From contig JAWPOG010000045.1 in NCBI GenBank assembly GCA_033345155.1, positions 5,795 through 69,794 on the forward strand: a stretch of DNA of 64,000 nt, written 5' to 3'. Position numbers and translations under genes: made by a program. The notes under the pieces are model-generated. The model was not told the DNA's origin, made no database searches, and saw only the letters and a program-made list of their open reading frames with translations. Shown piece by piece: positions 5 through 51,413 of this stretch. Source of the DNA: Alphaproteobacteria bacterium (GTDB lineage: Bacteria; Pseudomonadota; Alphaproteobacteria; Rs-D84). Positions within the stretch are counted from its first letter, which is position 1. Every line of letters starts with the position of its first letter.

Positions 5-1993
5 ATGGCAAAAAAATATTTAATTACATCTGCATTACCATACGTGAACAATAATTTACATATTGGTCATTTGATTGGTTGTTTGCTGCCAAGTGATGTT
101 TATGCACGTTTTTGTCGTGCAATGGGGCGTGATGTGTTGGTTGTGGCGGGGTCTGACGAACATGGTACCGCCAGTGAAATTGGTGCGTACAAAGAAAATA
201 TGCCTGTGGAAGATTATGTTGAAAAATATCGTGCGTATCAGTTGCAATCTGTCAAAGATTTTAATTTGTCTTTTGATTTATACGGTCGCACACACACAAA
301 AACACATGAAAAATTGATTCAAAGTTTATTCTTGCGCCTGCAAGAACAAGGTATGCTGGTTGAAAAAGTATCCATGCAACCATATTCCGTCAAAGAAGAA
401 AAATTCTTGGCGGACAGATTTGTTATCGGTACTTGTCCAAAGTGTGGATATGATCACGCATACGGAAACGAATGCGACAAATGTTTTGCGAGCTTGGAAC
501 CAGCACAATTGATAAATCCACACAGTGCTGTTGTACCAGATTCACCTGTGGAAATGCGTGAAACAAAGCACTTGTACTTTAAATACAGCGAAATGCAAGA
601 CGCATTACGCAAATGGATTGATTCACGTGTGGGATGGTCTAAAACTGCGTTAGCGATTGCGAATAAATGGCTGGACGAAGGGTTGCATGATGGCCCAATC
701 ACACGTGACTTAAAATGGGGAATTCCTGTCAACAAGCCTGGTTATGAAAACAAGGTTTTTTATGTATGGTTTGACGCACCGTGGGGTTATGTTTCAATTT
801 CACAAGACGCAAATAAAAACTGGGCAGATTGGTGGCATGGTGGTGATGATGTTCACTATGCTCAATTTATGGCCAAGGATAATGTGTCTTTCCATTCTAT
901 ATTCTTTCCTGCCCAAGAATTGGCGATGAACGACAACTGGAAAACAGTTGATACATTAAAAGGTTTTAATTTCTTAAACTTTGAAGGCGGCAAGGTTTCT
1001 AAATCAACAGGAAATGGGATTTTCTTGAATGAAGCGATTACAATTGCGCCGGCGGACACATGGCGTTATGCGCTGTTGGCCAGTGCGCCTGAAACAGACG
1101 ATACAGACTTTACTGTTTCCCGTTTTGCAGAAATTGTAAACAAGGATCTGAACGGTATGTTGGGAAATTTTGTCAGCCGTGTATGTAAACTGACCCAGAA
1201 AAATTTTGGAAACAATGTACCAAAATCTGGCGGCAAAAATTCAGGACTGGAATCACAAATAAATGAAAAAATATCAGAATTGACAAGTGCACTGGATGCA
1301 TGCGAATTCCGCAAATCTATTGCGGCACTGCGTGGGCTGTACGCAATTGGAAACGAATATATGACTAAAATGGAACCATGGGCGTTGGTAAAAAATGGTG
1401 AAACGGAAAAAGCAGGTGCGGTATTAAACGAATGTTTTCAGATGATTGATTTGTTTGCGCGTGTGTCTGCGCCATTTATCCCAGACGCGGCTGAAAAAAT
1501 GAAAAATATTTTCAAGTCCACACATGATTTGTCATGGCCAAAATCATACGAACATCGCATAGATGATGGCGCAGAATTCATTGTTCCTGAAAACTTGTTC
1601 AATCGCATTGATGATGAAACTGTCACAATGCTGGTTGAAAAATATACGGCAAAAAAAGAGGACATTTCTCCAAAACCAATTATCGCAGAAATTGTCGCCC
1701 TAGAAAATCATCCAACACGTGAAGATTTGCATGTGTTAAATGTAAATTATGGTGGTGATAAAAATGTACAGATTGTATGCGGAGCACCAAATGTACGCGT
1801 TGGTCTGCGTGGCGTATTGGCACCGGTTGGGGCAAAGTTACCAACATCAAAAAAACCAATGGCACAAAGAACGGTTGCGGGTGTTGAATCATTCGGTATG
1901 ATGTGCAGCGCACCGGAACTGGGGCTGTCTGGGGACGGTAAAAATATTATTGAATTGGGTGACGAATATAAAATCGGCGAAGAATATAAATAA
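5..1993 (+). CDS. metG: Methionyl-tRNA synthetase with C-terminal tRNA-binding (EMAP/Trbp111-like) domain
   Basis: 662-aa ORF. N-terminal class I HIGH motif (PYVNNNLHIGHLIG), KMSKS-like (KVSKS), and C-terminal ...VAGVESFGMMCS tRNA-binding domain. Confidence 0.95.
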   Translation: MAKKYLITSALPYVNNNLHIGHLIGCLLPSDVYARFCRAMGRDVLVVAGSDEHGTASEIGAYKENMPVEDYVEKYRAYQLQSVKDFNLSFDLYGRTHTKTHEKLIQSLFLRLQEQGMLVEKVSMQPYSVKEEKFLADRFVIGTCPKCGYDHAYGNECDKCFASLEPAQLINPHSAVVPDSPVEMRETKHLYFKYSEMQDALRKWIDSRVGWSKTALAIANKWLDEGLHDGPITRDLKWGIPVNKPGYENKVFYVWFDAPWGYVSISQDANKNWADWWHGGDDVHYAQFMAKDNVSFHSIFFPAQELAMNDNWKTVDTLKGFNFLNFEGGKVSKSTGNGIFLNEAITIAPADTWRYALLASAPETDDTDFTVSRFAEIVNKDLNGMLGNFVSRVCKLTQKNFGNNVPKSGGKNSGLESQINEKISELTSALDACEFRKSIAALRGLYAIGNEYMTKMEPWALVKNGETEKAGAVLNECFQMIDLFARVSAPFIPDAAEKMKNIFKSTHDLSWPKSYEHRIDDGAEFIVPENLFNRIDDETVTMLVEKYTAKKEDISPKPIIAEIVALENHPTREDLHVLNVNYGGDKNVQIVCGAPNVRVGLRGVLAPVGAKLPTSKKPMAQRTVAGVESFGMMCSAPELGLSGDGKNIIELGDEYKIGEEYK

Positions 1994-1994
1994 T

Positions 1995-3041
1995 ATGTCA
2001 GATATGCGTGTTGTTTTATTGTCTTGTTGCGCGCCATGTTCGTCGGGTGCAATAAAACAATTGGCAGAACATAAAATAGACGGCGTGTCTGACTTTATTG
2101 TTTTGTTTTACAATCCAAATATTTTTCCAGAATCTGAATATACAAAACGTATGAACGAGCAAATAAAGTACTGTGAACAGTTGGGTGTAAAATATGCTGT
2201 TCTGGAATATGACCATGACGCATGGCGTGATGCCGTTCGTGGGTTTGAGAACGCACCCGAACGCGGGGCGCGTTGCAGTCTGTGTTTTGAATACAGATTT
2301 CGTCGCGCGGAAAAATTTGCACGTGAAAACGGTTATAACGCGATTGCATCTGTATTGGGTGTGTCGCGTCATAAAAGTCAAACTCAGGTTGATAACGCCG
2401 CACAAAATGTTTTAAGACAAGATGTAAACGCAAAAAATTATCACGCAAAAAGATATACAAATAGGGCGTTGGCACAATCAAAATATCTTAAAAAAAATAT
2501 GACAGAGGCCGAGCGCTTATTATGGCATTATTTACGTGCAAGAAAGGATTTTTCTTTTAGAAAGCAAGCGCCGATTGGAAATTATGTTGTTGATTTTTTG
2601 TGTGTTAAAAAGAAACTAGTGATAGAATTGGATGCTGCACAACACGGCGATAAAGATAATTTTTTGCATGATATAGAACGGGACGCGTATTTAGAAAAGA
2701 ATGGTTATCGTGTTTTAAGATTTTGGAATGACGAGGTTTGTCGAGATATAAAAAAAGTGTTGAATACAATTGATGTGTTTGTGAACGACAATTGTTCAAG
2801 CCACCCCCTGTCGTCACAGTGTGTGCCGACATCCCCCGCCAAGGGCGGTGGAAATTTTATTGGCGGCCTTTCAGAATGCCCACCGCCCTTGGCGGGGGGT
2901 GGCCACGACAGTGGTCGGGGGGTGGCTGTTGAATATATGCCAATTAAATGGGATGAAAATTTACGCATTCAGATAAATCGTGCGTCAGACTTTTATCGTC
3001 AGAATTATTGTGGCTGTGAATTCAGTATCAGAAAGATATAA
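1995..3041 (+). CDS. queH: Epoxyqueuosine reductase QueH (DUF208) interrupted in-frame by a DUF559 endonuclease-like domain and a palindromic element
   Basis: ATG at 1995 (MSDMRVVLLSCCAPCS = QueH CCxPC motif). C-terminus ...FYRQNYCGCEFS is the QueH C-terminal Cys motif. The central segment KYLKKNMTEAERLLWHYLR...PIGNYVVDFLC...LVIELDAAQH...GYRVLRFWNDEV is a complete DUF559/Vsr-like domain. The ORF tool started 45 nt upstream at 1950. Confidence 0.8.
   Translation: MSDMRVVLLSCCAPCSSGAIKQLAEHKIDGVSDFIVLFYNPNIFPESEYTKRMNEQIKYCEQLGVKYAVLEYDHDAWRDAVRGFENAPERGARCSLCFEYRFRRAEKFARENGYNAIASVLGVSRHKSQTQVDNAAQNVLRQDVNAKNYHAKRYTNRALAQSKYLKKNMTEAERLLWHYLRARKDFSFRKQAPIGNYVVDFLCVKKKLVIELDAAQHGDKDNFLHDIERDAYLEKNGYRVLRFWNDEVCRDIKKVLNTIDVFVNDNCSSHPLSSQCVPTSPAKGGGNFIGGLSECPPPLAGGGHDSGRGVAVEYMPIKWDENLRIQINRASDFYRQNYCGCEFSIRKI
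2801..2925. repeat. About 125-bp imperfect palindromic element (RPE/MITE-like) lying in-frame inside queH
   Basis: Left arm ccaccccctgtcgtcacagtgtgtgccgacatcccccgccaagggcggtgg; right arm ccaccgcccttggcggggggtggccacgacagtggtcggggggtgg. The reverse complement of the right arm ends in the identical cccccgccaagggcggtgg. GC-rich relative to the rest of the gene. Confidence 0.7.
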
Positions 3042-3070
3042 AAAAATCCGGCATTTGCCGGTATTTTTTA
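3041..3070. terminator. Bidirectional intrinsic terminator (A-tract, ccggcatttgccgg hairpin, T-tract)
   Basis: aaaaaaatccggcatttgccggtatttttta lies between convergent queH and the 3068..3502 gene. Confidence 0.7.
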
Positions 3071-3502
3071 TTTTGTTTTTTGATATACATCTGAGAATAA
3101 AACAGTCCCGACTGTCTCGCAAACCATTTTATCAAGACATTTTCCAGATTTTATATTTTCTGCACACAGTTCTTCTTTGCCACGCTGTGACATACCGGCT
3201 GTTTTTTTCTGGCATTTCATACATTTGCCAATTTCCAAATTTAATACCAGTTCATTTGTATAACTTTTTTCATTGAATTTTACCCATTGTGCCGCTTTTG
3301 AAGAATAAGATGCACTAAGAACCTTTGGACATGATTTTTGTGGTGTTGGATATTGTGCCACTAATTGAACCAGTTCTTGTGCTGTTTGTTGTGTGATATT
3401 TTCGCACAGTGATATTTTGCCCATCAGAAAAGAAAAATCGGCGTCCATAACAACCGTTACATTTTTTTGACGGTTTATATCTAATTCGTCATTATCAATC
3501 AT
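3068..3502 (-). CDS. Hypothetical Cys-containing protein (144 aa)
   Basis: Intact ORF with several CxxC-like pairs (CMKCQKK, CLDKMVC). No family recognised. Confidence 0.45.
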   Translation of the reverse strand: MIDNDELDINRQKNVTVVMDADFSFLMGKISLCENITQQTAQELVQLVAQYPTPQKSCPKVLSASYSSKAAQWVKFNEKSYTNELVLNLEIGKCMKCQKKTAGMSQRGKEELCAENIKSGKCLDKMVCETVGTVLFSDVYQKTK

Positions 3503-3579
3503 ACCTGACCCTTTTATTATTGTTGTAATAATAGTATATAGGCAAATAAAGTAAAGTCAAGGCCACCCCACTTCCCGCC

Positions 3580-3614
3580 AACCACTAACCACTAACCACT
3601 AACCACTAACCACT
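3580..3614. repeat. (AACCACT)x5 heptanucleotide tandem repeat
   Basis: aaccact repeated 5 times with a partial sixth unit upstream, directly 5' of a promoter-like ttgcga-17-tataat before fabD. Confidence 0.9.
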
Positions 3615-3622
3615 TTATTATT

Positions 3623-3651
3623 TGCGATTGGTTTTTTTAGGGTTTATAATA
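3623..3651 (+). promoter_or_regulatory. Putative sigma70-type promoter for fabD-fabG
   Basis: ttgcga, 17 nt, tataat, about 28 nt upstream of the fabD ATG. Confidence 0.4.
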
Positions 3652-3678
3652 TAACCAGCAAAATAAAAAAGGTTATAT

Positions 3679-4554
3679 ATGTCATCAATTTTTGTATTCC
3701 CAGGTCAAGGCGCACAAAGCGTCGGTATGGGTAAAGATTTATATGAAAATAACGCTGCCGCACGTGCCGTTTTTGATGAGGTTGATTCTGCACTGGGCGA
3801 AAAGTTATCGGATATCATTTTTAATGGCCCATCCGAAGAATTAACCCTGACCGCAAATGTTCAGCCGGCAATTATGGCGACATCGATTGCGATGTTGCGT
3901 GCCAGTGGTGTATCACTGCCAGAATTTGTCGCGGGTCATTCCCTGGGTGAATATACCGCGCTGTGTGCGGCTGGTGCGTTGTCGGTGGGTGACGCGGCAA
4001 GATTGTTGCGTGTGCGTGGTAATGCGATGCAATCTGCGGCGCCAGCGGGCACAGGTCTGACGGCTGTTGTTATGGGGCTGGATATTGATGTGGTGCGTGA
4101 AATCTGTGCGGCCACAGATTGTGATGTTGCCAACGACAATTGCCCAGGCCAGGTTGTTATTTCTGGGTTAAAAGAAACTGTCGAAAAAACAATGGATTTG
4201 GCAAAGTCTCGTGGGGCCAAACGTGCAATGCCATTGGCGCTGTCTGTTCCGGTTCATTGTCGGGTGCAATCGCCCGCAGCGGATGCGATGCGCGCCGCCC
4301 TGGATTCGGTTGAATTTAACACACCAATTGTACCAATCGTTTTAAATAAAACTTGTGCCCCAACAACCGATATTGATGAAATCAAAGACGCGCTGGTCTA
4401 TCAGATGACGCATGGTGTGCGTTGGCGCGAAAGTGTTTTAAATATGGCAAATTTAGGTGTAACAGAACAAATCGAAGTGGGCCCAGGTTCCGTTTTAACA
4501 GGCCTGTGTTCCCGTATCACAGATAAAATAACCGCTAAGAAATTGGAGATATAA
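3679..4554 (+). CDS. fabD: Malonyl-CoA:ACP transacylase
   Basis: FVFPGQGAQSVGMG and GHSLGEY active-site motifs. 291 aa. Confidence 0.95.
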   Translation: MSSIFVFPGQGAQSVGMGKDLYENNAAARAVFDEVDSALGEKLSDIIFNGPSEELTLTANVQPAIMATSIAMLRASGVSLPEFVAGHSLGEYTALCAAGALSVGDAARLLRVRGNAMQSAAPAGTGLTAVVMGLDIDVVREICAATDCDVANDNCPGQVVISGLKETVEKTMDLAKSRGAKRAMPLALSVPVHCRVQSPAADAMRAALDSVEFNTPIVPIVLNKTCAPTTDIDEIKDALVYQMTHGVRWRESVLNMANLGVTEQIEVGPGSVLTGLCSRITDKITAKKLEI

Positions 4555-5474: not shown

Positions 5475-7118
5475 ATGAAACATTATGATGTGATTGTTAT
5501 TGGTGGTGGGCATGCAGGGGTTGAAGCCGCATCTGCATCTGCACGTCGTGGTGCGAAAACCCTGTTGATAACAATGGCGGAATCGGATTTAGGCGCATTG
5601 TCTTGTAACCCCAGTATCGGCGGTCCCGGCAAATCCCAGATGGTTGCTGAAATGGATGCGCTGGGCGGTGTTATGCCGCGTGCCGCTGACCGCGCAGGGA
5701 TTCATTGGCGTACATTGAACGCAACACATGGTGCGGCGACGCGCGCCCTGCGTGCGCAAATCGACCGCGATTTATATCATAATGCGATTGTTGGTATTTT
5801 GTCGGAATATAAAAATCTGGATGTCATTTTTGAACCTGTTGAATCTGTGGATTTAGAAAACGCAATCGTTAACAACAAATATCATGCGCGCGCAGTTATC
5901 CTGACAACGGGAACATTTTTAAATGGCACGGTCACGCGTGGCGTGGAAAAAATCCCATCGGGGCGATTGATGGACGACGGCACATACCAAGACGCCGACA
6001 AAAACATATCAAATATTTTAAAGAACGCGGGCTTCAAGATTTTGCGCCTGAAAACAGGCACGCCTGCGCGCATCAAACGCGATTCGATTGATTTTTCTGT
6101 ATGTGAAATTCAGCCCGGCGACACCCCCCACGATTGGTTTTCCGACGGTGATGAAAACAATAATTATGACGCGGTCTGCTATATCACACATACAACCAAA
6201 ATCACGCACCAGATAATTCGTGATAACATAAAAAACGCACCAATGTATAATGGAGACATTACCGGCACTGGCCCGCGCTATTGCCCGAGTTTAGAAGACA
6301 AGGTTATGCGATTTCCAGAACACACATCGCACCATGTCTTCTTGGAACCCGAAGGTTATAACAGTGATTTAATATATCCAAATGGTATATCAACCAGTTT
6401 TGGCAGCGATATCCAAGACATCTGGATTCGCTCAATCCCGGGCTTGGAAAATTGCGAAATTGTGCGCTATGGATACGCGATTGAATACGATGCGATTGAC
6501 GCGCGCGCCCTGAACGATAAATTGCAGGCCAAGGACCGCCCGCACCTGTTTTTTGCAGGTCAAATCAATGGCACATCCGGGTACGAAGAAGCAGCGGCCC
6601 AGGGTCTGGTTGCGGGCGCAAATGCCGCGGCGTATGCATTAAATACAGAACCACTGATTCTGGACCGAACAAATTCAATGATTGGTGTTTTGATTGACGA
6701 CATAACAACATTGGGTGTGGACGAACCGTATCGCATGTTCACATCGCGTGCAGAATATCGTCTGTCATTGCGTTGCGATAATGCGATTGCGCGATTGGGG
6801 AAAATCGGTGTGAAACTGGGGCTGACAACAAATGCGTGGTATGAAAAAATATTCAATTTGAAAAAAGAAATTATTGCCGAAAACGATAAATTCTATGCGG
6901 GCTATATCGCGCGCAATGAACGTGAAATCGCCGCGTATAAACGGGACGCGGCATTAAAGATACCGTCTGATTTTGTGTATTCGGGCCTGCCGGGGCTGAC
7001 AAATGAATTGGTTGAAAAATTAACGGCAACGCGCCCGGAAAACATTGCCGACCTGACGCGCATACCGGGCATGACCCCCGCCGGGATTATGGTGGTGCTG
7101 CGCAAAATCAAGGCATAA
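5475..7118 (+). CDS. mnmG: tRNA uridine-5-carboxymethylaminomethyl modification enzyme MnmG (GidA), short form
   Basis: N-terminal FAD motif YDVIVIGGGHAGVEAA, and PRYCPSLEDKV, FFAGQINGTSGYEEAAAQG. 547 aa, shorter than the typical ~620 aa. Confidence 0.9.
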   Translation: MKHYDVIVIGGGHAGVEAASASARRGAKTLLITMAESDLGALSCNPSIGGPGKSQMVAEMDALGGVMPRAADRAGIHWRTLNATHGAATRALRAQIDRDLYHNAIVGILSEYKNLDVIFEPVESVDLENAIVNNKYHARAVILTTGTFLNGTVTRGVEKIPSGRLMDDGTYQDADKNISNILKNAGFKILRLKTGTPARIKRDSIDFSVCEIQPGDTPHDWFSDGDENNNYDAVCYITHTTKITHQIIRDNIKNAPMYNGDITGTGPRYCPSLEDKVMRFPEHTSHHVFLEPEGYNSDLIYPNGISTSFGSDIQDIWIRSIPGLENCEIVRYGYAIEYDAIDARALNDKLQAKDRPHLFFAGQINGTSGYEEAAAQGLVAGANAAAYALNTEPLILDRTNSMIGVLIDDITTLGVDEPYRMFTSRAEYRLSLRCDNAIARLGKIGVKLGLTTNAWYEKIFNLKKEIIAENDKFYAGYIARNEREIAAYKRDAALKIPSDFVYSGLPGLTNELVEKLTATRPENIADLTRIPGMTPAGIMVVLRKIKA

Positions 7119-7134
7119 AAATCACAGCCCTTTT

Positions 7135-7207
7135 TGTCATTCCCGCGTTCGGGGTACGAAAATTTCTTTTGATTTTTTGTCATTCCCGCGCAGGCGGGAA
7201 TAGGGTC
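7135..7207. repeat. Two tandem copies (one degenerate) of the ATTCCC-N8-GGGAAT palindromic repeat tgtcattcccgcgcaggcgggaatagggtc
   Basis: ttgtcattcccgcgttcgggg at 7135-7160 and tgtcattcccgcgcaggcgggaatagggtc at 7178-7207. Confidence 0.85.
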
Positions 7208-7242
7208 TAAAAAATTTATCTATTGTTTTTTTACTGATAGTT

Positions 7243-8651: not shown

Positions 8652-8935
8652 TATTATCTCCGAAAAAAATAACCGCCATGGAATTGGCGGTCGGGTGCTT
8701 TCAAAATCATACGATAAATGACCCTGCTGCTTTCGGGCAAGCCCTGTTATATAACAACAGACACCCGACCAACTTGGTCAGGCAATAACGGTGCGATGCA
8801 CCATAATGGAATCACGATGCAAACGCACCGTATCGTATGGGGTTTGAAAGCCCTGAATCCAATTCCCATCGGATTCATGTCTGATTATATCAGGAAAATA
8901 TACAAATGTAAAATTTTGTGTGTTGAATAAAAACT

Positions 8936-8968
8936 TTGTCATTCCCGCGCAGGCGGGAACAGGGTCTT
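8936..8968. repeat. ATTCCC-N8-GGGAAT palindromic repeat copy (ttgtcattcccgcgcaggcgggaacagggtcttgaaaaaattt)
   Basis: Same orientation as the 7178 copy. Inverted partner at 9331. Confidence 0.85.
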
Positions 8969-9001
8969 GAAAAAATTTGTGTGCCCTTGTACAATTTTGA
9001 T

Positions 9002-9331
9002 ATGAAAGATTATCACTTCTGGGTTTATATATTGTTTGATGAACGCGCCAAGGGAACTTATATTGGTGTGACGAATAATCTTGAACGGCGTATGTATGAA
9101 CACAAAATGGGATTAGATGACGGTTATACCAAAGAACATAATATTCATAAATTAGGATATTTTGAATACTACAAATATGTTAATAATGCGATTGCGCGTG
9201 AAAAACAATTAAAGAAATGGAAACGGGCATGGAAATATCGATTGATTGAAACAATGAATCCAAATTGGATTGATTTGGCCGACGATTTAGAGAAAAACAT
9301 AGAGTTTTGGAAAAACAAAGAAACTGTTTAG
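9002..9331 (+). CDS. GIY-YIG nuclease family protein (109 aa)
   Basis: HFWVYILFDERAKGTYIGVTNNLERRMYEH matches the GIY-YIG core (YIL..., YIG, R..EH). The 131-aa ORF-tool call from 8936 begins inside the repeat. ATG at 9002 is the likely start. Confidence 0.85.
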   Translation: MKDYHFWVYILFDERAKGTYIGVTNNLERRMYEHKMGLDDGYTKEHNIHKLGYFEYYKYVNNAIAREKQLKKWKRAWKYRLIETMNPNWIDLADDLEKNIEFWKNKETV

Positions 9332-9407
9332 ACCCTATTCCCGCCTGCGCGGGAATGACAAAGGGTATTATGCGTAAACAAACAAAAAACGCGCGGGAAT
9401 GACAAAA
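9331..9407. repeat. Inverted copy of the ATTCCC-N8-GGGAAT repeat (gaccctattcccgcctgcgcgggaatgacaaa) plus a partial extra copy (gcgcgggaatgacaaaa at 9391-9407)
   Basis: Begins at the last base of the GIY-YIG stop codon. Confidence 0.85.
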
Positions 9408-30184: not shown

Positions 30185-32377
30185 ATGAGAAATCAAAAAG
30201 TTGCGAATTCTGTAAAAAATGCGATTGGGACGGTCTTTTTGTTGACTGGTGCTTTTTTTGTATGTTCGACAATGTTGTCAATTCGTTCGGTTTTTGCAGA
30301 TCCGGTTGCGCCGGCAGACCCTGTTGCATCGCAGACAGGCCCCAGGTCCGATGGGGTGGTGCGTTCTGGTCGTGCCAATGCGCGCGCCAACGCAACACGT
30401 ACAACATCATCAAATCCATCTCGCACAACCAGATCACGCAGCACTGTTCAGCCTCGTGCGGTTTCTTCCCGCGCGAATGCGACTGTGGCGGGACGCACAA
30501 ATGTCTCGCCATCTCGCAATGTTGTTTCTCGTGCGAATGTGGTTGCGAATCGTGCGAACGCTTCAAATGTACGTTCGGTTCGTGCACGAACTGCTACGAC
30601 GGATGCAACAAACGCTTCGCGTATTTCATTGCAGGGTAATGCTATTCGTGGGTCCAAGCTGTCCACTACGGGGGGTGTGACTTCCACTTATTCGTATCTC
30701 AGCAGCAAATTGCGCACAGGCAACTATTCAAACATCATTGATGCATCCACCGGATTGATTTCTGCGGACGCGTTCAACAATTGTATGGAATCTTATTATA
30801 CCTGTATGGATGAAATTTGTACTGCACGTAATGCGGCCCAGCGTCGTTGTGCGTGCGCCGGTCGTGTCAGGGCATTCGCCGATGCCGAAACCGCGCTAGA
30901 GACCGCTAACGAAGAATTGATTAAGGTTTCTGGTGAATTGGCTTTGTTGGTTGCGAACAAGGGCAAGGATATTTCCGATGCTTTCCAGTTAACGGACGCA
31001 GAAAAGGTTTTGAATTGTGTTTCATGGCAAGAAGTGACAGGTAAATATGGTCTGTCTTCTGAAGAGGCTGTAGACTGGTGCTATAATCACGGTTTTTATG
31101 GCAGTAATGGTGGCAAGGTTTCTTCGTGTGCAAAGCCATCATATTGTTCAGAATCCGGTAATAATTTTGGGTTTGATGTGACAAATCTTGATGGCAACAG
31201 TACTGATATCCTTGCGTCATTACAATCGTGGGCCGACGCCAAGGAACAGACAATAACCATCCTTGACCAAGATGAAGATGGTTTGTTGGCATCTTTTGAG
31301 AACCTGTCGTCTGTAATCAGCGGACTGGCCGGCATTGGCGGTACATTAGATTCATCAGACGATTTAAAGGACAGCCTGGCCGAGACCTGGGGCTATGAAT
31401 TGTTTGAATATGCGCATAATAATGTTTGCGCACGTGTTTTGGATTCTTGTTTTAACGGCATTTACGAGGCTTGTGGAACCCCGCCATCTGGCACCAAGTG
31501 CAGCAGTGGTACGGCCCAATGTCCATATAATTATAACAGCAAGATAAGCGTAAACAATTCTGGTACATACGAATTGAACTTTGTGACACCGTCCAGTGGT
31601 TATTCGGCAACAAATTCTGCAGCTTGTTTTGGTTATGCATCCACATCAGGTGACCCTTATTCAAGTTTGCGCGGTCCTGTTGCAGACGCTCGTCGCAGTA
31701 TTATGCAGAAATACGCATTGGATGCAAATGCAGATTGCGATGCTTATGGCGAACAGTTGCGTGCCACGGCCCAGAACATTGGTTATCAAAAGGTTGCAGC
31801 GCAACAGGCCCTGCAGCAAAAGCGTCTGGAATTTGCAAACGAAGAACGTGACACAATCCTGGCCAATGCGTTGCAGGCAGGAACAAATTTTGAAGCGTGT
31901 ATCAGTGAACTGTACGAATGTTATGATGCCCAGCTAGACAGTCACGGCCCAGGCAAGAATACTGTTTGGACGGTATCTCGTATCCGCACATATTGCGCCC
32001 AGGTTGCAAATGTTCCTTCTTGCTATGAAGAAATGATATGCACGCCATCTTCGGCTCAGTTCAAGGCGGTTGTCGATGTTGCTGACAAAAGCAATTGTTT
32101 CAGCAGTCAGGACTACACAACAAACACCTGTCGTAACATTGTAACCCTGAACGAGATTATCAATGGTACAGGTGCAATAGGTGACGAAGTCAATGATATC
32201 AACAATTTGATTTTGGCTGGCACATTATACAATAACAACAGCAATGTTAATTCCGCTGCTTTGCGTGAATATTGCTTGCGCGATGCAATCGGTCTTGACG
32301 AAAATGACGAGGTTGCAATCCGAACATGGCTAAAAACAGAATGGGATAATATGCAGGCCGCAGCAAATGAACAGTAA
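30185..32377 (+). CDS. Large secreted cysteine-rich protein with N-terminal (S/V)RAN-repeat low-complexity region (731 aa)
   Basis: RBS ggagag, ATG at 30185. Signal-anchor AIGTVFLLTGAFFVCSTMLSI. Residues about 60-170 are R/S/N/A/T/V-rich with reiterated SRANA/SRANV units. The remaining ~560 aa contain more than 30 Cys in CxC/CxxC patterns. GC-rich codon usage. Confidence 0.7.
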   Translation: MRNQKVANSVKNAIGTVFLLTGAFFVCSTMLSIRSVFADPVAPADPVASQTGPRSDGVVRSGRANARANATRTTSSNPSRTTRSRSTVQPRAVSSRANATVAGRTNVSPSRNVVSRANVVANRANASNVRSVRARTATTDATNASRISLQGNAIRGSKLSTTGGVTSTYSYLSSKLRTGNYSNIIDASTGLISADAFNNCMESYYTCMDEICTARNAAQRRCACAGRVRAFADAETALETANEELIKVSGELALLVANKGKDISDAFQLTDAEKVLNCVSWQEVTGKYGLSSEEAVDWCYNHGFYGSNGGKVSSCAKPSYCSESGNNFGFDVTNLDGNSTDILASLQSWADAKEQTITILDQDEDGLLASFENLSSVISGLAGIGGTLDSSDDLKDSLAETWGYELFEYAHNNVCARVLDSCFNGIYEACGTPPSGTKCSSGTAQCPYNYNSKISVNNSGTYELNFVTPSSGYSATNSAACFGYASTSGDPYSSLRGPVADARRSIMQKYALDANADCDAYGEQLRATAQNIGYQKVAAQQALQQKRLEFANEERDTILANALQAGTNFEACISELYECYDAQLDSHGPGKNTVWTVSRIRTYCAQVANVPSCYEEMICTPSSAQFKAVVDVADKSNCFSSQDYTTNTCRNIVTLNEIINGTGAIGDEVNDINNLILAGTLYNNNSNVNSAALREYCLRDAIGLDENDEVAIRTWLKTEWDNMQAAANEQ

Positions 32378-35497: not shown

Positions 35498-36094
35498 ATG
35501 TTGAAAAAAACGGATGTAGTCTTATTTGATTTTGATGGCACTTTATCGGGCCAGGATTCCAATGTTGCGTTTGCCCGTTATTGCTTTCGTCGCAGTATTC
35601 GTCCGTGGTTTTATTTGCCGTTGATTGGTGTTTGTGGGATTGTTCGTTGTTTTTGTCCAGATGGAATATGGTGGCGCGAAAATATTCGTCGTTTTATTAC
35701 ACCGCAAATGATTAAGAGATTTGCGCCTGGTTTTATCAAACAACACAAACGTGAACGATTTGGTTGGGCGCGCGACAGGGTTCGGGCCGAGCGTGACGCA
35801 GGCCGCAGGGTTTTACTGATTTCTGCCAGCCCAGATTATTTATTGCCTGCCTTGGTAAGGGATATGAAATTTGACGCGGTTTTTTGTTCAGTGACCAACA
35901 AGAAAAAGCCATGGAAATATGAATTTTTATGCTGGGGCAAAAACAAGGTCTTGGCGATGGATGAATGGGCATGCGAAAACAAAATGATTCCGCATGTGGT
36001 GCGTGCGTATTCGGACAGCAAATCGGATATGCCAATGATGGAAATCGCCGCCGAGCAGGTTTGGATTGATAAAAAAACGGGGCTAAGAAAATAG
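35498..36094 (+). CDS. HAD-superfamily hydrolase (subfamily IB-like)
   Basis: Motif I FDFDGTL near the N-terminus, and a later ...YSDSKSDMPMM Asp motif. Confidence 0.75.
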   Translation: MLKKTDVVLFDFDGTLSGQDSNVAFARYCFRRSIRPWFYLPLIGVCGIVRCFCPDGIWWRENIRRFITPQMIKRFAPGFIKQHKRERFGWARDRVRAERDAGRRVLLISASPDYLLPALVRDMKFDAVFCSVTNKKKPWKYEFLCWGKNKVLAMDEWACENKMIPHVVRAYSDSKSDMPMMEIAAEQVWIDKKTGLRK

Positions 36095-48683: not shown

Positions 48684-51413
48684 TTATTCAGATGCAACCG
48701 CGTCTGCGGATTCAGATTCTTCGTCGGATGCGCGTTCAATTGAAATTGCCGAAACAACTTTTTCGTTATCGGCGGTGCGGAACAAAGTCACACCAGCCGT
48801 CGAACGTCCCGCTATACGAACATCGGACACAGGTGTGCGGATGATTTTTCCACCGTCTGTAACCATGATAATATCCTGGTCATCAATAACAGGGAACGAT
48901 CCCGCAACGGCTGTATTTTTTCCGCCCAGTTTAATGTTTGCAAATCCGCCACCACCACGATGTGTTAAACGATATTCGTACGAACTGGTGCGTTTACCAA
49001 ATCCGTTTTCAGAAATGGTCAATATAAATTCTTCGTTCGCCGCCAACTCCGCCATTTTGGCATCATCCAGAACCAGTGTTGTCACTTCTTCTTCTGCATC
49101 TGCTTCTTCTTCTATGCCTGTTTCTGCACGACGTGCCGCGCGTGATTGTTTGATATAAGCCGCACGCACTGCCGAATCGGATTCACCACGGTTCAACATT
49201 GCCATATCTATAATGCGGTCATCCGCCCCCAGTGTGATACCACGAACACCCGTCGAATTGCGGCCCGCAAATACACGAATTTCCGGCACAGGGAATCGAA
49301 TCGCACGACCACGATATGTCGCCAAGAACACATCTTGGTCTTCATTACATGGCAGAACGGAAATCAAACTGTCACCCTCATCCAATTTCATGGCGATTTT
49401 ACCGTTTGCACGAATCGAATCAAAATCACTCATACGATTGCGGCGCACCGTTCCAGATGCGGTCGCGAACATCAAGAAATGTTCTTTGCCTGATTCTGCA
49501 ACACGTGCCACATCTTCTTCTGGTACTGGTAAAATAGCAGTAATCGTTTCGCCATTTTCCAATGGCAACAGATTTACCAGTGGACGTCCCTTGGCGGCGG
49601 CCGCTGCCTCGGGCAGTTTATATGTTTTCAGTTTGTAACACATGCCACGTGAACTAAAGAACAGCAAAGGTGTATGTGTGTTTGCCACGAACACCTGAAC
49701 AACATAGTCATCATCCTTGGTGGTCATGGCATTACGTCCTTTGCCCCCACGTTTTTGCGCACGATAAGTATCCAATGCAACCCGTTTAATATATCCTGTG
49801 TTTGATACAGTGATAACCATATCTTCGCGTGCAATCAAATCCTCGATATCAATGTCGATTTCAGCATCTGAAATTTCCGTACGACGTGGGGATGCCCAAT
49901 TGTCGCGTACAGATGCGGTTTCTTCACGAATAATTTGAATAATGCGTTCGTGACTGCCCAGAATTTCCAACAGGTCGCGAATCGTTGCACCCAATGTCGT
50001 CAAATCATTATGGATTTTGTCGCGTTCCAACCCGGTCAGACGATGCAACTGTAATTCCAGAATTGCACGAGCCTGATCTTCGGACATGTAAAACATGCCG
50101 TCTTTGTATTCAGTATTTGGGTCATCAATTAATTGAATATAAGATTCAATATCAGATGCGCGCCAACCGCGAGAAACCAGGGCTTCGCGGGCAACTTCGG
50201 GATTTGGGCTGGATTTAATCAGTTCAATAACCTCGTCCAGATTTCCGACCGCCACAGACAACCCCAACAAAGTATGGGCACGATTTCGCGCCTTGTTCAA
50301 ATCGAATATTGTACGACGACGAATAACCTCGGCACGGAAATCGATAAATGCGTCCAGCACACCACGCACATTGAACAACATCGGGCGACCACGGTTCAGT
50401 GCCATCATATTAACGGGGAAACTGGTCTGCATTTCTGTGTACTGGAACAGATGATTCAAGACCACATCTGCAATTGCGTCACGTTTTAATTCGATAACGA
50501 TACGCAAACCTTCCTTGGATGATTCGTCACGAATTTCAGAAATGCCTTCGATTCTTTTATCCTTAATCAGTTCGGCGATTTTGATAATCATTTGAGCCTT
50601 GTTCACTTGATAAGGAATCTCGTCAACGATAATCGCCTGATGGTCACGAAAATCTTCGATATGGGTTTTCGAGCGAATAATGATAGAACCACGACCTGTG
50701 GTATGCGCCTTGTACGCGCCCGCGCGTCCCATAATCATTGCGCCGGTCGGAAAGTCAGGCCCAGGAATAATGCCGAACAGTTCGTCATCGGTCAGATTCT
50801 TGTTATCCAAAATCGCCAAAATACCGTTGCAAATTTCACCCAGATTATAGGTCGGAACATTTGTCGCCATACCAACTGCAATACCGGAACCGCCATTTAC
50901 CAGGAAATTTGGGAATTTTGCGGGCAAAACAATCGGTTCCTGCAATGAGCCGTCAAAGTTTGGCTGCCAATCAACAGTGTCTTTGTCCATGTCGTCCATT
51001 AACGACGCACCCAATTTTGAAAGTCGTGCCTCGGTATAACGCATGGCGGCCGCCTTGTCCCCGTCGCGCGAACCAAAGTTACCCTGGCCCTGGACCAGCA
51101 TTTCGCCCATGGAAAAGTCCTGACCCATACGAACCATTGCTTCGTAAATAGAACTGTCACCATGTGGGTGATATTTACCCATAACATCACCAACGATACG
51201 CGCAGACTTTACAGTCGGCTTGGTCGCAGGCGCAACATCATTCATAACATACAGAATTCTGCGGTGCACAGGTTTACAACCGTCACGAACATCAGGCAAC
51301 GCGCGGTCAACAATAACCGACATTGCATAGTCCAAAAAACTGGTCCGCATTTCATGTTCCAAAGAAGACTGTGGAACACGGGTTTCAATTACTTCATTAA
51401 TGTTTTCTGACAT
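48684..51413 (-). CDS. gyrA: DNA gyrase subunit A
   Basis: [31 protein letters not shown] with the active-site Tyr region, six C-terminal GyrA-box/beta-pinwheel repeats and an acidic tail. Start taken at MSENINEV. Confidence 0.95.

Follow-up and report, generated by a model that had tools for sequence, protein, structure and literature searches.

To our knowledge, the Rickettsia palindromic elements (RPEs) encode nothing and have no nuclease associated with them, and the very large DUF559 family of proteins has no assigned function. Catalogues of BoxC repeats, also called PIT or triplex-motif repeats, go back to the 1990s, and neither an origin nor a role in mobility is known for them. For the triplex motif, Holder et al. 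2015 (PMC4666352) described 23 copies in Escherichia coli K-12 and its presence in >260 genomes, with inverted pairs of a ‘type A’ and a ‘type B’ unit clustering locally at rearrangement-prone loci; the motif was always intergenic, adjoined no transposase or integrase, and had an origin called unclear. A further point of reference is I-Bth0305I, a proven homing endonuclease with a Vsr fold (PMC3239194). Here we describe a queH gene, located in a 64,000-nucleotide (nt) stretch of an alphaproteobacterial genome (contig JAWPOG010000045.1; ‘the window’ in what follows), whose reading frame takes in both a DUF559 domain and a GC-rich palindrome. We think it probable that nt 2406–2927 of the window are a stranded copy of a compact selfish element, comprising a DUF559 open reading frame (ORF) set between hairpin repeats, that is tolerated within QueH and is still mobile, by a mechanism that we infer.

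Working through the gene from its 5′ end, we see the following features (window coordinates; aa, amino acids):

1995–3041, + strand: the chimeric queH ORF (348 aa plus stop), in which QueH, DUF559 and palindrome share one uninterrupted frame.
1995–2405, + strand: N-terminal part of QueH, aa 1–137, with the CCAPC motif and cysteines C94/C97 (Pfam; residues 20–132 of 7LC5).
2406–2435, + strand: 5′ linker of the insert, NVLRQDVNAK, the upstream repeat unit being gone in this genome (alignment to an insert-free orthologue).
2436–2798, + strand: DUF559, a Vsr-fold PD-(D/E)xK nuclease domain, aa 148–268 (Pfam core 2469–2780; Pfam and structure matches).
2799–2855, + strand: repeat unit ‘L’, the downstream terminal repeat of the DUF559 module, with a C-rich tail AGCCACCCCC, a small variable hairpin and a terminal hairpin CCCCCGCC-AAG-GGCGGTGG.
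2856–2875, no strand: AT-rich spacer, forming the loop of the palindrome (fold).
2876–2927, − strand: repeat unit ‘R’, an inverted copy of the ~52-nt unit, which together with L makes a 128-nt palindrome.
2928–3038, + strand: C-terminal part of QueH, aa 312–348, with the invariant FYRQNYCGCEFS motif (alignment; 7LC5 match; substitution rates).

The ORF lies straight after metG and upstream of fabD, and its product is identical to NCBI protein MDW3024844.1, annotated plainly as QueH and belonging to an alphaproteobacterial metagenome-assembled genome. On the 348-aa protein, Pfam places QueH (PF02677; E 9.5e-44, cut-off 23.5 bits), split into two segments of which the first spans aa 7–156, and DUF559 (PF04480; E 1e-33) at aa 159–262, along with a third family, MTES_1575, a nuclease model related to DUF559; no Hint or intein domain and no Y1_Tnp domain was found by the same scan. 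The DUF559 domain is complete, since this highly significant match spans profile positions 4–107 of 109. Both points had been proposed from the sequence alone in the original prediction, namely that the two halves of QueH, a whole DUF559 domain and a palindrome run in one open frame. The closest insert-free orthologue (179 aa, loci L105/L106) has only five residues, ‘SECCD’, opposite the 169 extra residues of the window protein, and the insertion is therefore placed at about nt 2406–2927, in good agreement with the 2416–2935 first suggested.

A search of PDB sequences matches QueH structure 7LC5 to aa 30–139 and 325–345, and DUF559 structure 3HRL to the insert (E 2e-21). In an AlphaFold2 model of the chimera (mean predicted local distance difference test score, pLDDT, 84.8), the QueH core and DUF559 form separate, mostly confident domains, with pLDDT >90 across most of the latter; Foldseek superposes Thermotoga maritima QueH (7LC5) on the modelled QueH with an rmsd of 1.6 Å over 140 columns, and 3HRL on the nuclease with a TM-score of 0.79. 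Residues 269–307, which are coded by most of the palindrome, fall to a pLDDT of about 30, and the predicted TM-score (pTM) of the whole is low (0.62), with no fixed domain interface. The model thus presents the repeat-encoded peptide as a disordered linker and the nuclease as an independently folding domain. Cysteines C12, C94, C97, C339 and C341 of QueH are invariant or nearly so (alignment A1), the C-terminal FYRQ.YCGCEFS motif shows no variation across all chimeras, and the family-invariant residues of DUF559 (E, W, D-F, E-x-D, H, D, R and others) are present in 13/13 columns of alignment A3. The DUF559 part also gives a weak match (E 2e-4) to the ‘homing endonuclease’ (HEase) profile of PADLOC.

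Comparison of six lineages by the Nei–Gojobori method gives proportions of non-synonymous (pN) and synonymous (pS) differences of 0.134 and 0.733 for the N-terminal part of QueH, 0.197 and 0.827 for DUF559, and 0.110 and 0.786 for the C-terminal part of QueH 3′ of the insert; synonymous sites are saturated, and purifying selection acts on the two halves of QueH as well as on DUF559. These data bear on the least credible of the explanations we considered, that queH is a pseudogene disrupted by insertion, or the locus an assembly chimera. A long insert between the metal-ligand motifs and a very stable hairpin within an ORF are what one would expect of either, but the frame is open in every lineage, selection is strong 3′ of the insert, and the C-terminal motif does not vary. 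Moreover, because an identical NCBI protein exists and relatives with the chimeric arrangement come from independent NCBI, ENA, JGI and Logan assemblies, the arrangement is not an artefact of assembly. The original prediction had left a choice between a tolerated mobile-element insertion and an inactivated queH; the low pN set against saturated pS in the C-terminal part, together with its invariant motif, speaks against the second, and the first draws support from the separate domains and disordered linker described above, and from the presence/absence pair and near-identical insert in diverged genomes described below.

The GC-rich palindrome predicted at the end of the insert is borne out: the last 128 nt (2799–2927) fold at −98.9 kcal/mol (z = −8.2 against shuffles), and an 18-nt core occurs twice, once per arm, against a chance expectation of 0.05 matches. 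Within the arm unit, the stem of the small hairpin varies in sequence by lineage with pairing always kept; RNAalifold on 15 units finds 7 and 9 double-sided compensatory changes at two of its pairs and almost no G-U, as well as a UA/CG switch at the base of the terminal hairpin. Where homologous arms align, pS is only 0.09–0.25 with pN about equal, and since pS is low with a dN/dS (non-synonymous to synonymous rate ratio) of about 1, the arms are kept as nucleotides and not as peptide. Covarying stems and frozen synonymous sites alike show that the repeats are maintained as nucleic-acid structures. Rfam, searched at a permissive threshold over window positions 1900–3200, gave no relevant family, and no further copy of DUF559 or of the palindrome was found in the 64-kb window. 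Its other stretches of GC ≥ 70% (7024–7085, 30302–30393, 30833–30896, 35750–35810 and 51040–51099, in a window of 43% GC) do not match the core of the queH palindrome.

How palindrome and nuclease relate becomes clear from DUF559 genes elsewhere. In a blind sample of 80 metagenome loci, retrieved by DUF559 protein patterns alone, 50 had at least 400 nt on each side and were scored for bracketing by inverted repeats alongside 156 shifted controls; a score of at least 16 was reached by 23/50 loci (46%) and of at least 20 by 17/50, compared with 0/156 controls in either case (Fisher p 3e-12 at the higher threshold). The distance from repeat to repeat is mostly 390–530 bp, and 7/17 of the best loci have extra solo units close by. 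Because DUF559 genes are bracketed in this way in the blind sample and the controls are not, we conclude that DUF559 and palindrome are one module and not two accidents, the palindrome consisting of the module's own terminal repeat units; its first description as a separate add-on does not hold. At one free-standing DUF559 gene from an unrelated metagenome, a full palindrome lies upstream and a third unit overlaps the 3′ end. The downstream unit in the window abuts the 3′ end of DUF559 just as in free-standing genes of other phyla, and many free-standing DUF559 proteins end in repeat-encoded tails (HPxPLPxGEGE, PNPSPQGGGAF; compare ‘PTSPAKGGGNF’ in the window). In its canonical form, the element runs from a terminal hairpin with G-rich tail, through a DUF559 ORF, to a C-rich tail with terminal hairpin, about 0.4–0.5 kb in all, and its reading frame is often open between the two repeats and across them.

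Repeat units are also seen without the gene. The unit typical of Candidatus Enterousia occurs in intergenic gaps of related genomes, and two loci (L011 and L019) carry a repeat-spacer-repeat from which the gene is missing, resembling a miniature inverted-repeat transposable element (MITE). One Verrucomicrobiia match of the genome scan (L014) was discarded, the rest of the unit being missing and the match probably due to chance. At three loci (L011 7119–7339, L013 and L016), gene-less arm pairs are nested in a longer element whose outer inverted repeats are rich in AT (TAAACTTTTATTTAT); this motif is found again next to arms at other loci in Enterousia-like genomes.

The module is not confined to queH. 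Within the blind sample it lies in frame in four host genes, encoding an M14 peptidase, a TaqI-type enzyme, an N6/N4 methylase and an HrpA-type helicase, where it separates DEAD from Helicase_C. When 1.84 billion cluster representatives (50% identity clusters) were searched exhaustively with the DUF559 domain of the window, 22,798 of them matched at E ≤ 1e-3, including 8,016 at E ≤ 1e-10; among the best 150 representatives, 55 are at least 250 aa long and 36 have at least 80 aa either side of the DUF559 match. Ten of these embedded cases were scanned with Pfam and comprise RecO, a pyridine-nucleotide oxidoreductase, a Mur ligase whose N-terminal domain is parted from the middle one by the insert, an Eco57I-type methylase with two copies, and six proteins (6/10) with HsdS domains, the specificity domains of type I restriction-modification; among the restriction-modification proteins, some may be genuine fusions. 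Repeat-encoded peptides flank DUF559 in 3/3 sequences read, those of the Mur ligase, RecO and oxidoreductase. The notion of a queH-specific lineage of DUF559 chimeras, to which a word-indexed domain search listing no other hosts had pointed, is overturned by the exhaustive search and the metagenome loci. One Eco57I-type methylase (P0290, 1214 aa) has two DUF559 domains, at about aa 560–643 and 1072–1177 of a single ORF.

Within QueH, the same loop is occupied by DUF559 in about 18 protein clusters, whose members are 50–71% identical to the window protein over their whole length; the insertion is thus neither unique nor recent. All carriers belong to one clade, Candidatus Enterousia and related gut Alphaproteobacteria, and the order metG-queH-fabD-fabG-mnmG is seen around the chimeras. 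QueH proteins nearest to that of the window in their N-terminal part (79–86% identity) have no nuclease, or only one remaining arm, and the DUF559 segment was not found in unrelated QueH lineages; on account of both observations the event is an insertion inside one clade and not an ancestral fusion, in line with the earlier proposal. The insertion took place in an ancestor of the Enterousia-like gut Alphaproteobacteria, at a short loop on the surface of QueH, and as the repeats leave the frame open, translation of the host gene continues through them. Two further chimeras hold DUF559 at another QueH loop, after the CCAPC helix, flanked by inverted repeats of other sequence (37 nt, 92% complementary, and 65 nt, 91%); these are independent events. 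In one of them (L020, protein P0098), the DUF559 lacks GYRVLRFWN, reading NLEIIHIPAS, and keeps E-x-D...H; it looks like a decaying copy.

This breadth is also what lends some weight to a functional fusion, in which a bifunctional QueH-nuclease, or a DUF559 serving as a nucleic-acid-binding module for tRNA, would be kept for its benefit to the cell: about 18 clusters, with identities as low as 50%, retain the architecture, and purifying selection acts on DUF559. We nevertheless consider such a fusion very unlikely, given that the nearest relatives manage without the insert and one species is polymorphic for it, that the same module sits at a second QueH loop and in many unrelated enzymes, and that the linker is disordered, the pTM low, the interface not fixed and DUF559 faster-evolving than QueH.

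The arrangement of the units differs between relatives. With D standing for DUF559, the window and L005 read D-L-spacer-R, with L005 bearing a degenerate repeat remnant at the 5′ linker position of the insert; L001 and L007 read L-spacer-R-D-L, and L003 reads L-D-R. An arm without DUF559 is found in L002 (L alone) and in L006 (R alone). To judge by their order, L-spacer-R-D-L-spacer-R could have given rise to all of these through deletions between repeated units; it may itself be seen as a canonical R-D-L element within an L-R palindrome. The repeats are recombinogenic, yielding the variants D-L-R, L-R-D-L, L-D-R, L-only and R-only. In two chimeras of about 450 aa (P0008 and P0010; alignment A1), the inserts are far longer, with several extra repeat-encoded GC-rich segments between QueH and DUF559; here the arms appear to have been amplified within the ORF, the frame still being open.

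A pair of close relatives captures one such change. The flanks of L001 and L002 (3.6 kb and 0.54 kb) are 99.2% identical, and what distinguishes the two loci is an in-frame indel of 501 nt, at whose borders the L unit is directly repeated over ~60 nt. Deletion between repeats is the best explanation of arm-only alleles, and this is relevant to the suggestion that two unrelated events struck a permissive loop, a palindromic MITE arriving first and DUF559 being captured separately. Such a history would account for arm-bearing alleles without DUF559 (L002, L006), and for the presence of the arm family at other loci without any DUF559. We hold it to be extremely improbable, however, since DUF559 is associated with repeats in general and with high significance, its 3′ end adjoins the downstream unit in the same way in free-standing genes of other phyla, and deletion best accounts for the arm-only alleles.

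A second comparison, with a genome from the 90% protein cluster of the window (L107), concerns the insert itself. Identity between the two changes abruptly along the locus (window coordinates):

1501–2280: 75% identity.
2403–2953 (the insert tract): 99.6% identity, 2 differences in 551 nt.
2954–3014: about 87% identity (8 differences).
3015–3511 (a neighbouring ORF): 99.2% identity (4 differences).
3461–4300: 69% identity.

The 5′ breakpoint of the shared tract falls ≤3 nt from the insertion boundary. The comparison shows that the insert was exchanged recently between diverged genomes, a finding that is not proof of the nuclease as the driver. Homing genes are recognised by presence and absence at the same site in close relatives combined with discordantly high identity of the element; both are seen here, in L001/L002 and in the window and L107. 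The two differences within the insert are both non-synonymous and away from the family consensus (Gly to Ala; F to C): A214 stands where Gly is at least 90% conserved and is kept by cluster-mates, and C249 where cluster-mates P0241–P0243 have F. With these two substitutions at conserved residues and its upstream repeat lost, the window copy may be decaying.

The neighbouring ORF deserves mention in its own right. It encodes 144 aa (window 3068–3502, − strand), lies between queH and fabD and belongs to no Pfam or PADLOC family; its position is taken in relatives by an ORF of 161 aa (L007) or 67 aa (L001), or by none (L003). The region looks like a second variable, recently exchanged cassette beside the queH insert. 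Small stand-alone GIY-YIG nuclease ORFs lie a few kb from queH in L003 (5679–6077) and L107 (14249–14578), and may be further selfish nuclease genes of that neighbourhood.

Turning to the repeats around unrelated DUF559 genes, these read CCCTCTCCC-loop-GGGAGAGGG-(TTA or CCG)-GGGTGAGGG, and judged by this sequence appear to be the BoxC / PIT / TM_ECO intrastrand triplex motif. The arms in the window follow, by inspection, the same layout of C-block, G-block and mirrored G-block with other blocks (CCACCGCC / GGCGGGGG / GGGGGTGG), the second loop of the motif being enlarged in this lineage to the covarying hairpin. In E. coli K-12, published copy no. 9 of the motif (1,351,204–1,351,239) is 168 nt from ycjD, the only DUF559 gene seen in the stretch examined, and the end of the ycjD ORF falls within another such hairpin. 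Between two triplex-motif units 3′ of ycjD (L022; NC_000913.3 1,351,200–1,351,420) there is a partial duplicate of the ycjD 3′ end (ggagacggtgctggagaatattc), which suggests the remnant of a second, tandem DUF559 copy. The 231-nt region adjacent to ycjD is matched, in the median E. coli genome, at 16 places, and ycjD sits where the eefRABCD operon is missing (PMC12817139). A literature search on DUF559, ycjD, COG2852, PF04480 and Vsr-like proteins with inverted repeats found no paper tying DUF559 or ycjD to repeats or mobility; a paper on 7-deazaguanine in phages that matched ‘DUF559’ concerns the unrelated DUF5591. The queH case is one member of a broad element class for which we found no description in the literature.

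The main rival to a mobile element is a domesticated, repeat-servicing nuclease, comparable to the transposases associated with repetitive extragenic palindromes (REP/RAYT), that would serve dispersed hairpin repeats in trans, be encoded between repeats of its own like a RAYT, be inherited vertically, and have come to rest in queH by accident. Several of our observations suit it: each locus or region shows a single DUF559, and the arm is present at further intergenic sites in those metagenome-assembled genomes; E. coli, with its one ycjD, matches the repeat region next to that gene at a median of 16 places per genome; inheritance is mostly vertical; and covariation conserves the hairpins, which a structure-specific enzyme would lead one to expect. 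Against this, free-standing copies are tightly bracketed by inverted repeats, resemble whole transposable units and are found inside many unrelated genes, movement of the gene itself is indicated by the filled/empty polymorphism and by an insert that is nearly identical in diverged genomes, and the nuclease is not a Y1/HUH transposase. We therefore regard the domesticated enzyme as unlikely, and return to a selfish element that moves with its gene.

As to how such an element would move, DUF559 expressed within QueH might cut DNA at or near repeat units, or at the empty site, with the element then being copied in by recombinational repair in a homing-like manner; alternatively, it might act in trans on gene-less, MITE-like repeat pairs. 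Movement of this kind would explain the patchy presence, the filled/empty polymorphism, the near-identity in diverged genomes and the dispersed gene-less copies.

Saying this, a number of our observations weigh against a mobile element. No target-site duplication was seen at the repeat borders of the 14 elements inspected; a distant blastn search of plasmid and phage collections with the whole insert gave no match; and related queH loci of ~20 kb hold no second full copy, with the core found only within queH. The window copy has lost its upstream repeat, retaining only the downstream unit plus an extra inverted one. Across 16 chimeras, the identities of QueH and DUF559 correlate (r 0.67) with sister pairs concordant and DUF559 evolving faster, and because the two co-vary, inheritance is mostly vertical and the patchiness could be loss only; in a strict tree-incongruence test for horizontal transfer the identities were too saturated to decide, with co-divergence mostly vertical. 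The documented empty alleles bear arm footprints and are thus deletions rather than naive targets. The 99% tract shared with L107 resumes over the ORF at 3015–3511, and may reflect ordinary recombination in place of element-driven transfer. Finally, nuclease activity and target are putative for every DUF559 protein considered here.

The window also holds another dispersed repeat, with the GC hairpin TTTGTCATTCCCGCGCAGGCGGGAATAGGGTCT, in three copies of which one is inverted (7176–7227, 8934–8973 and 9311–9363). These surround a 131-aa ORF (8936–9331), and the same motif flanks an arm copy in L009.

The window has led to a statistical link between two long-standing orphans, the DUF559 family and the BoxC/triplex-motif repeats, and the location of E. 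coli K-12 ycjD beside a published triplex-motif copy offers a handle in a model organism by which an old question becomes testable. That DUF559 and the BoxC/PIT/triplex-motif repeats together form a widespread, previously unrecognised class of ~0.45-kb mobile element is a proposal we make tentatively, seeing it as a serious possibility that falls short of our confidence in the queH element itself. If true, the orphan BoxC/triplex-motif repeats, in E. coli as in hundreds of further genomes, would represent the ends of such elements and derivatives that lack the gene, their movement or cutting would fall to DUF559 proteins of the YcjD type, and the elements would be able to colonise genes in frame without splicing (queH, Mur ligase, recO, hrpA, hsdS). 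This new kind of transposable or homing element would then have a small Vsr-fold nuclease as its only protein. Annotations of the form ‘X fused to DUF559’ are to be re-read as host genes with an insertion.

Set beside the systems with which we began, the queH insert shares features with each. The analogy first drawn with RPEs holds for behaviour: in both, a GC-rich palindrome lies in frame in alphaproteobacterial genes and is translated as a tolerated surface peptide. It fails for membership, as the queH palindrome consists of the end-repeats of a gene-carrying element, with arms that by inspection are laid out like the BoxC/triplex motif. With the BoxC/triplex motifs it has in common inverted pairs, local clustering and genomic instability, although these were described as always intergenic whereas the queH copy is in frame within a gene. 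REP/RAYT systems, with their inverted REP doublets (REPINs), likewise combine a single nuclease gene flanked by dispersed hairpin repeats with largely vertical inheritance, but the enzyme here is a ~110-aa PD-(D/E)xK Vsr-fold nuclease, not a Y1/HUH transposase, and gene and repeats insert in frame into coding sequences. An autonomous transposon with MITEs would show the same terminal inverted repeats (22–65 nt, present in canonical relatives of the window element), one internal ORF and gene-less derivatives elsewhere; the element differs in having no target-site duplication and no known transposase fold (DDE, HUH, or serine/tyrosine recombinase), and in its size of only about 0.45 kb.

Comparable too are homing endonuclease genes and inteins, the former including the Vsr-fold ‘EDxHD’ enzymes such as I-Bth0305I. 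There too, a selfish nuclease ORF resides in a conserved host gene without destroying it; its distribution is patchy, filled and empty alleles occur, copies in diverged hosts are nearly identical, and some copies show signs of decay (here P0098, possibly the window copy). Homing endonuclease genes have no bracketing hairpin inverted repeats, and use one cognate site where relatives of the queH element occupy many sites and genes. Unlike introns and inteins, the queH insert has no intron and no Hint domain, and stays in the mature protein; a tolerated, in-frame extra domain is thus a third way, besides these two, for a selfish nuclease to reside inside an essential gene.

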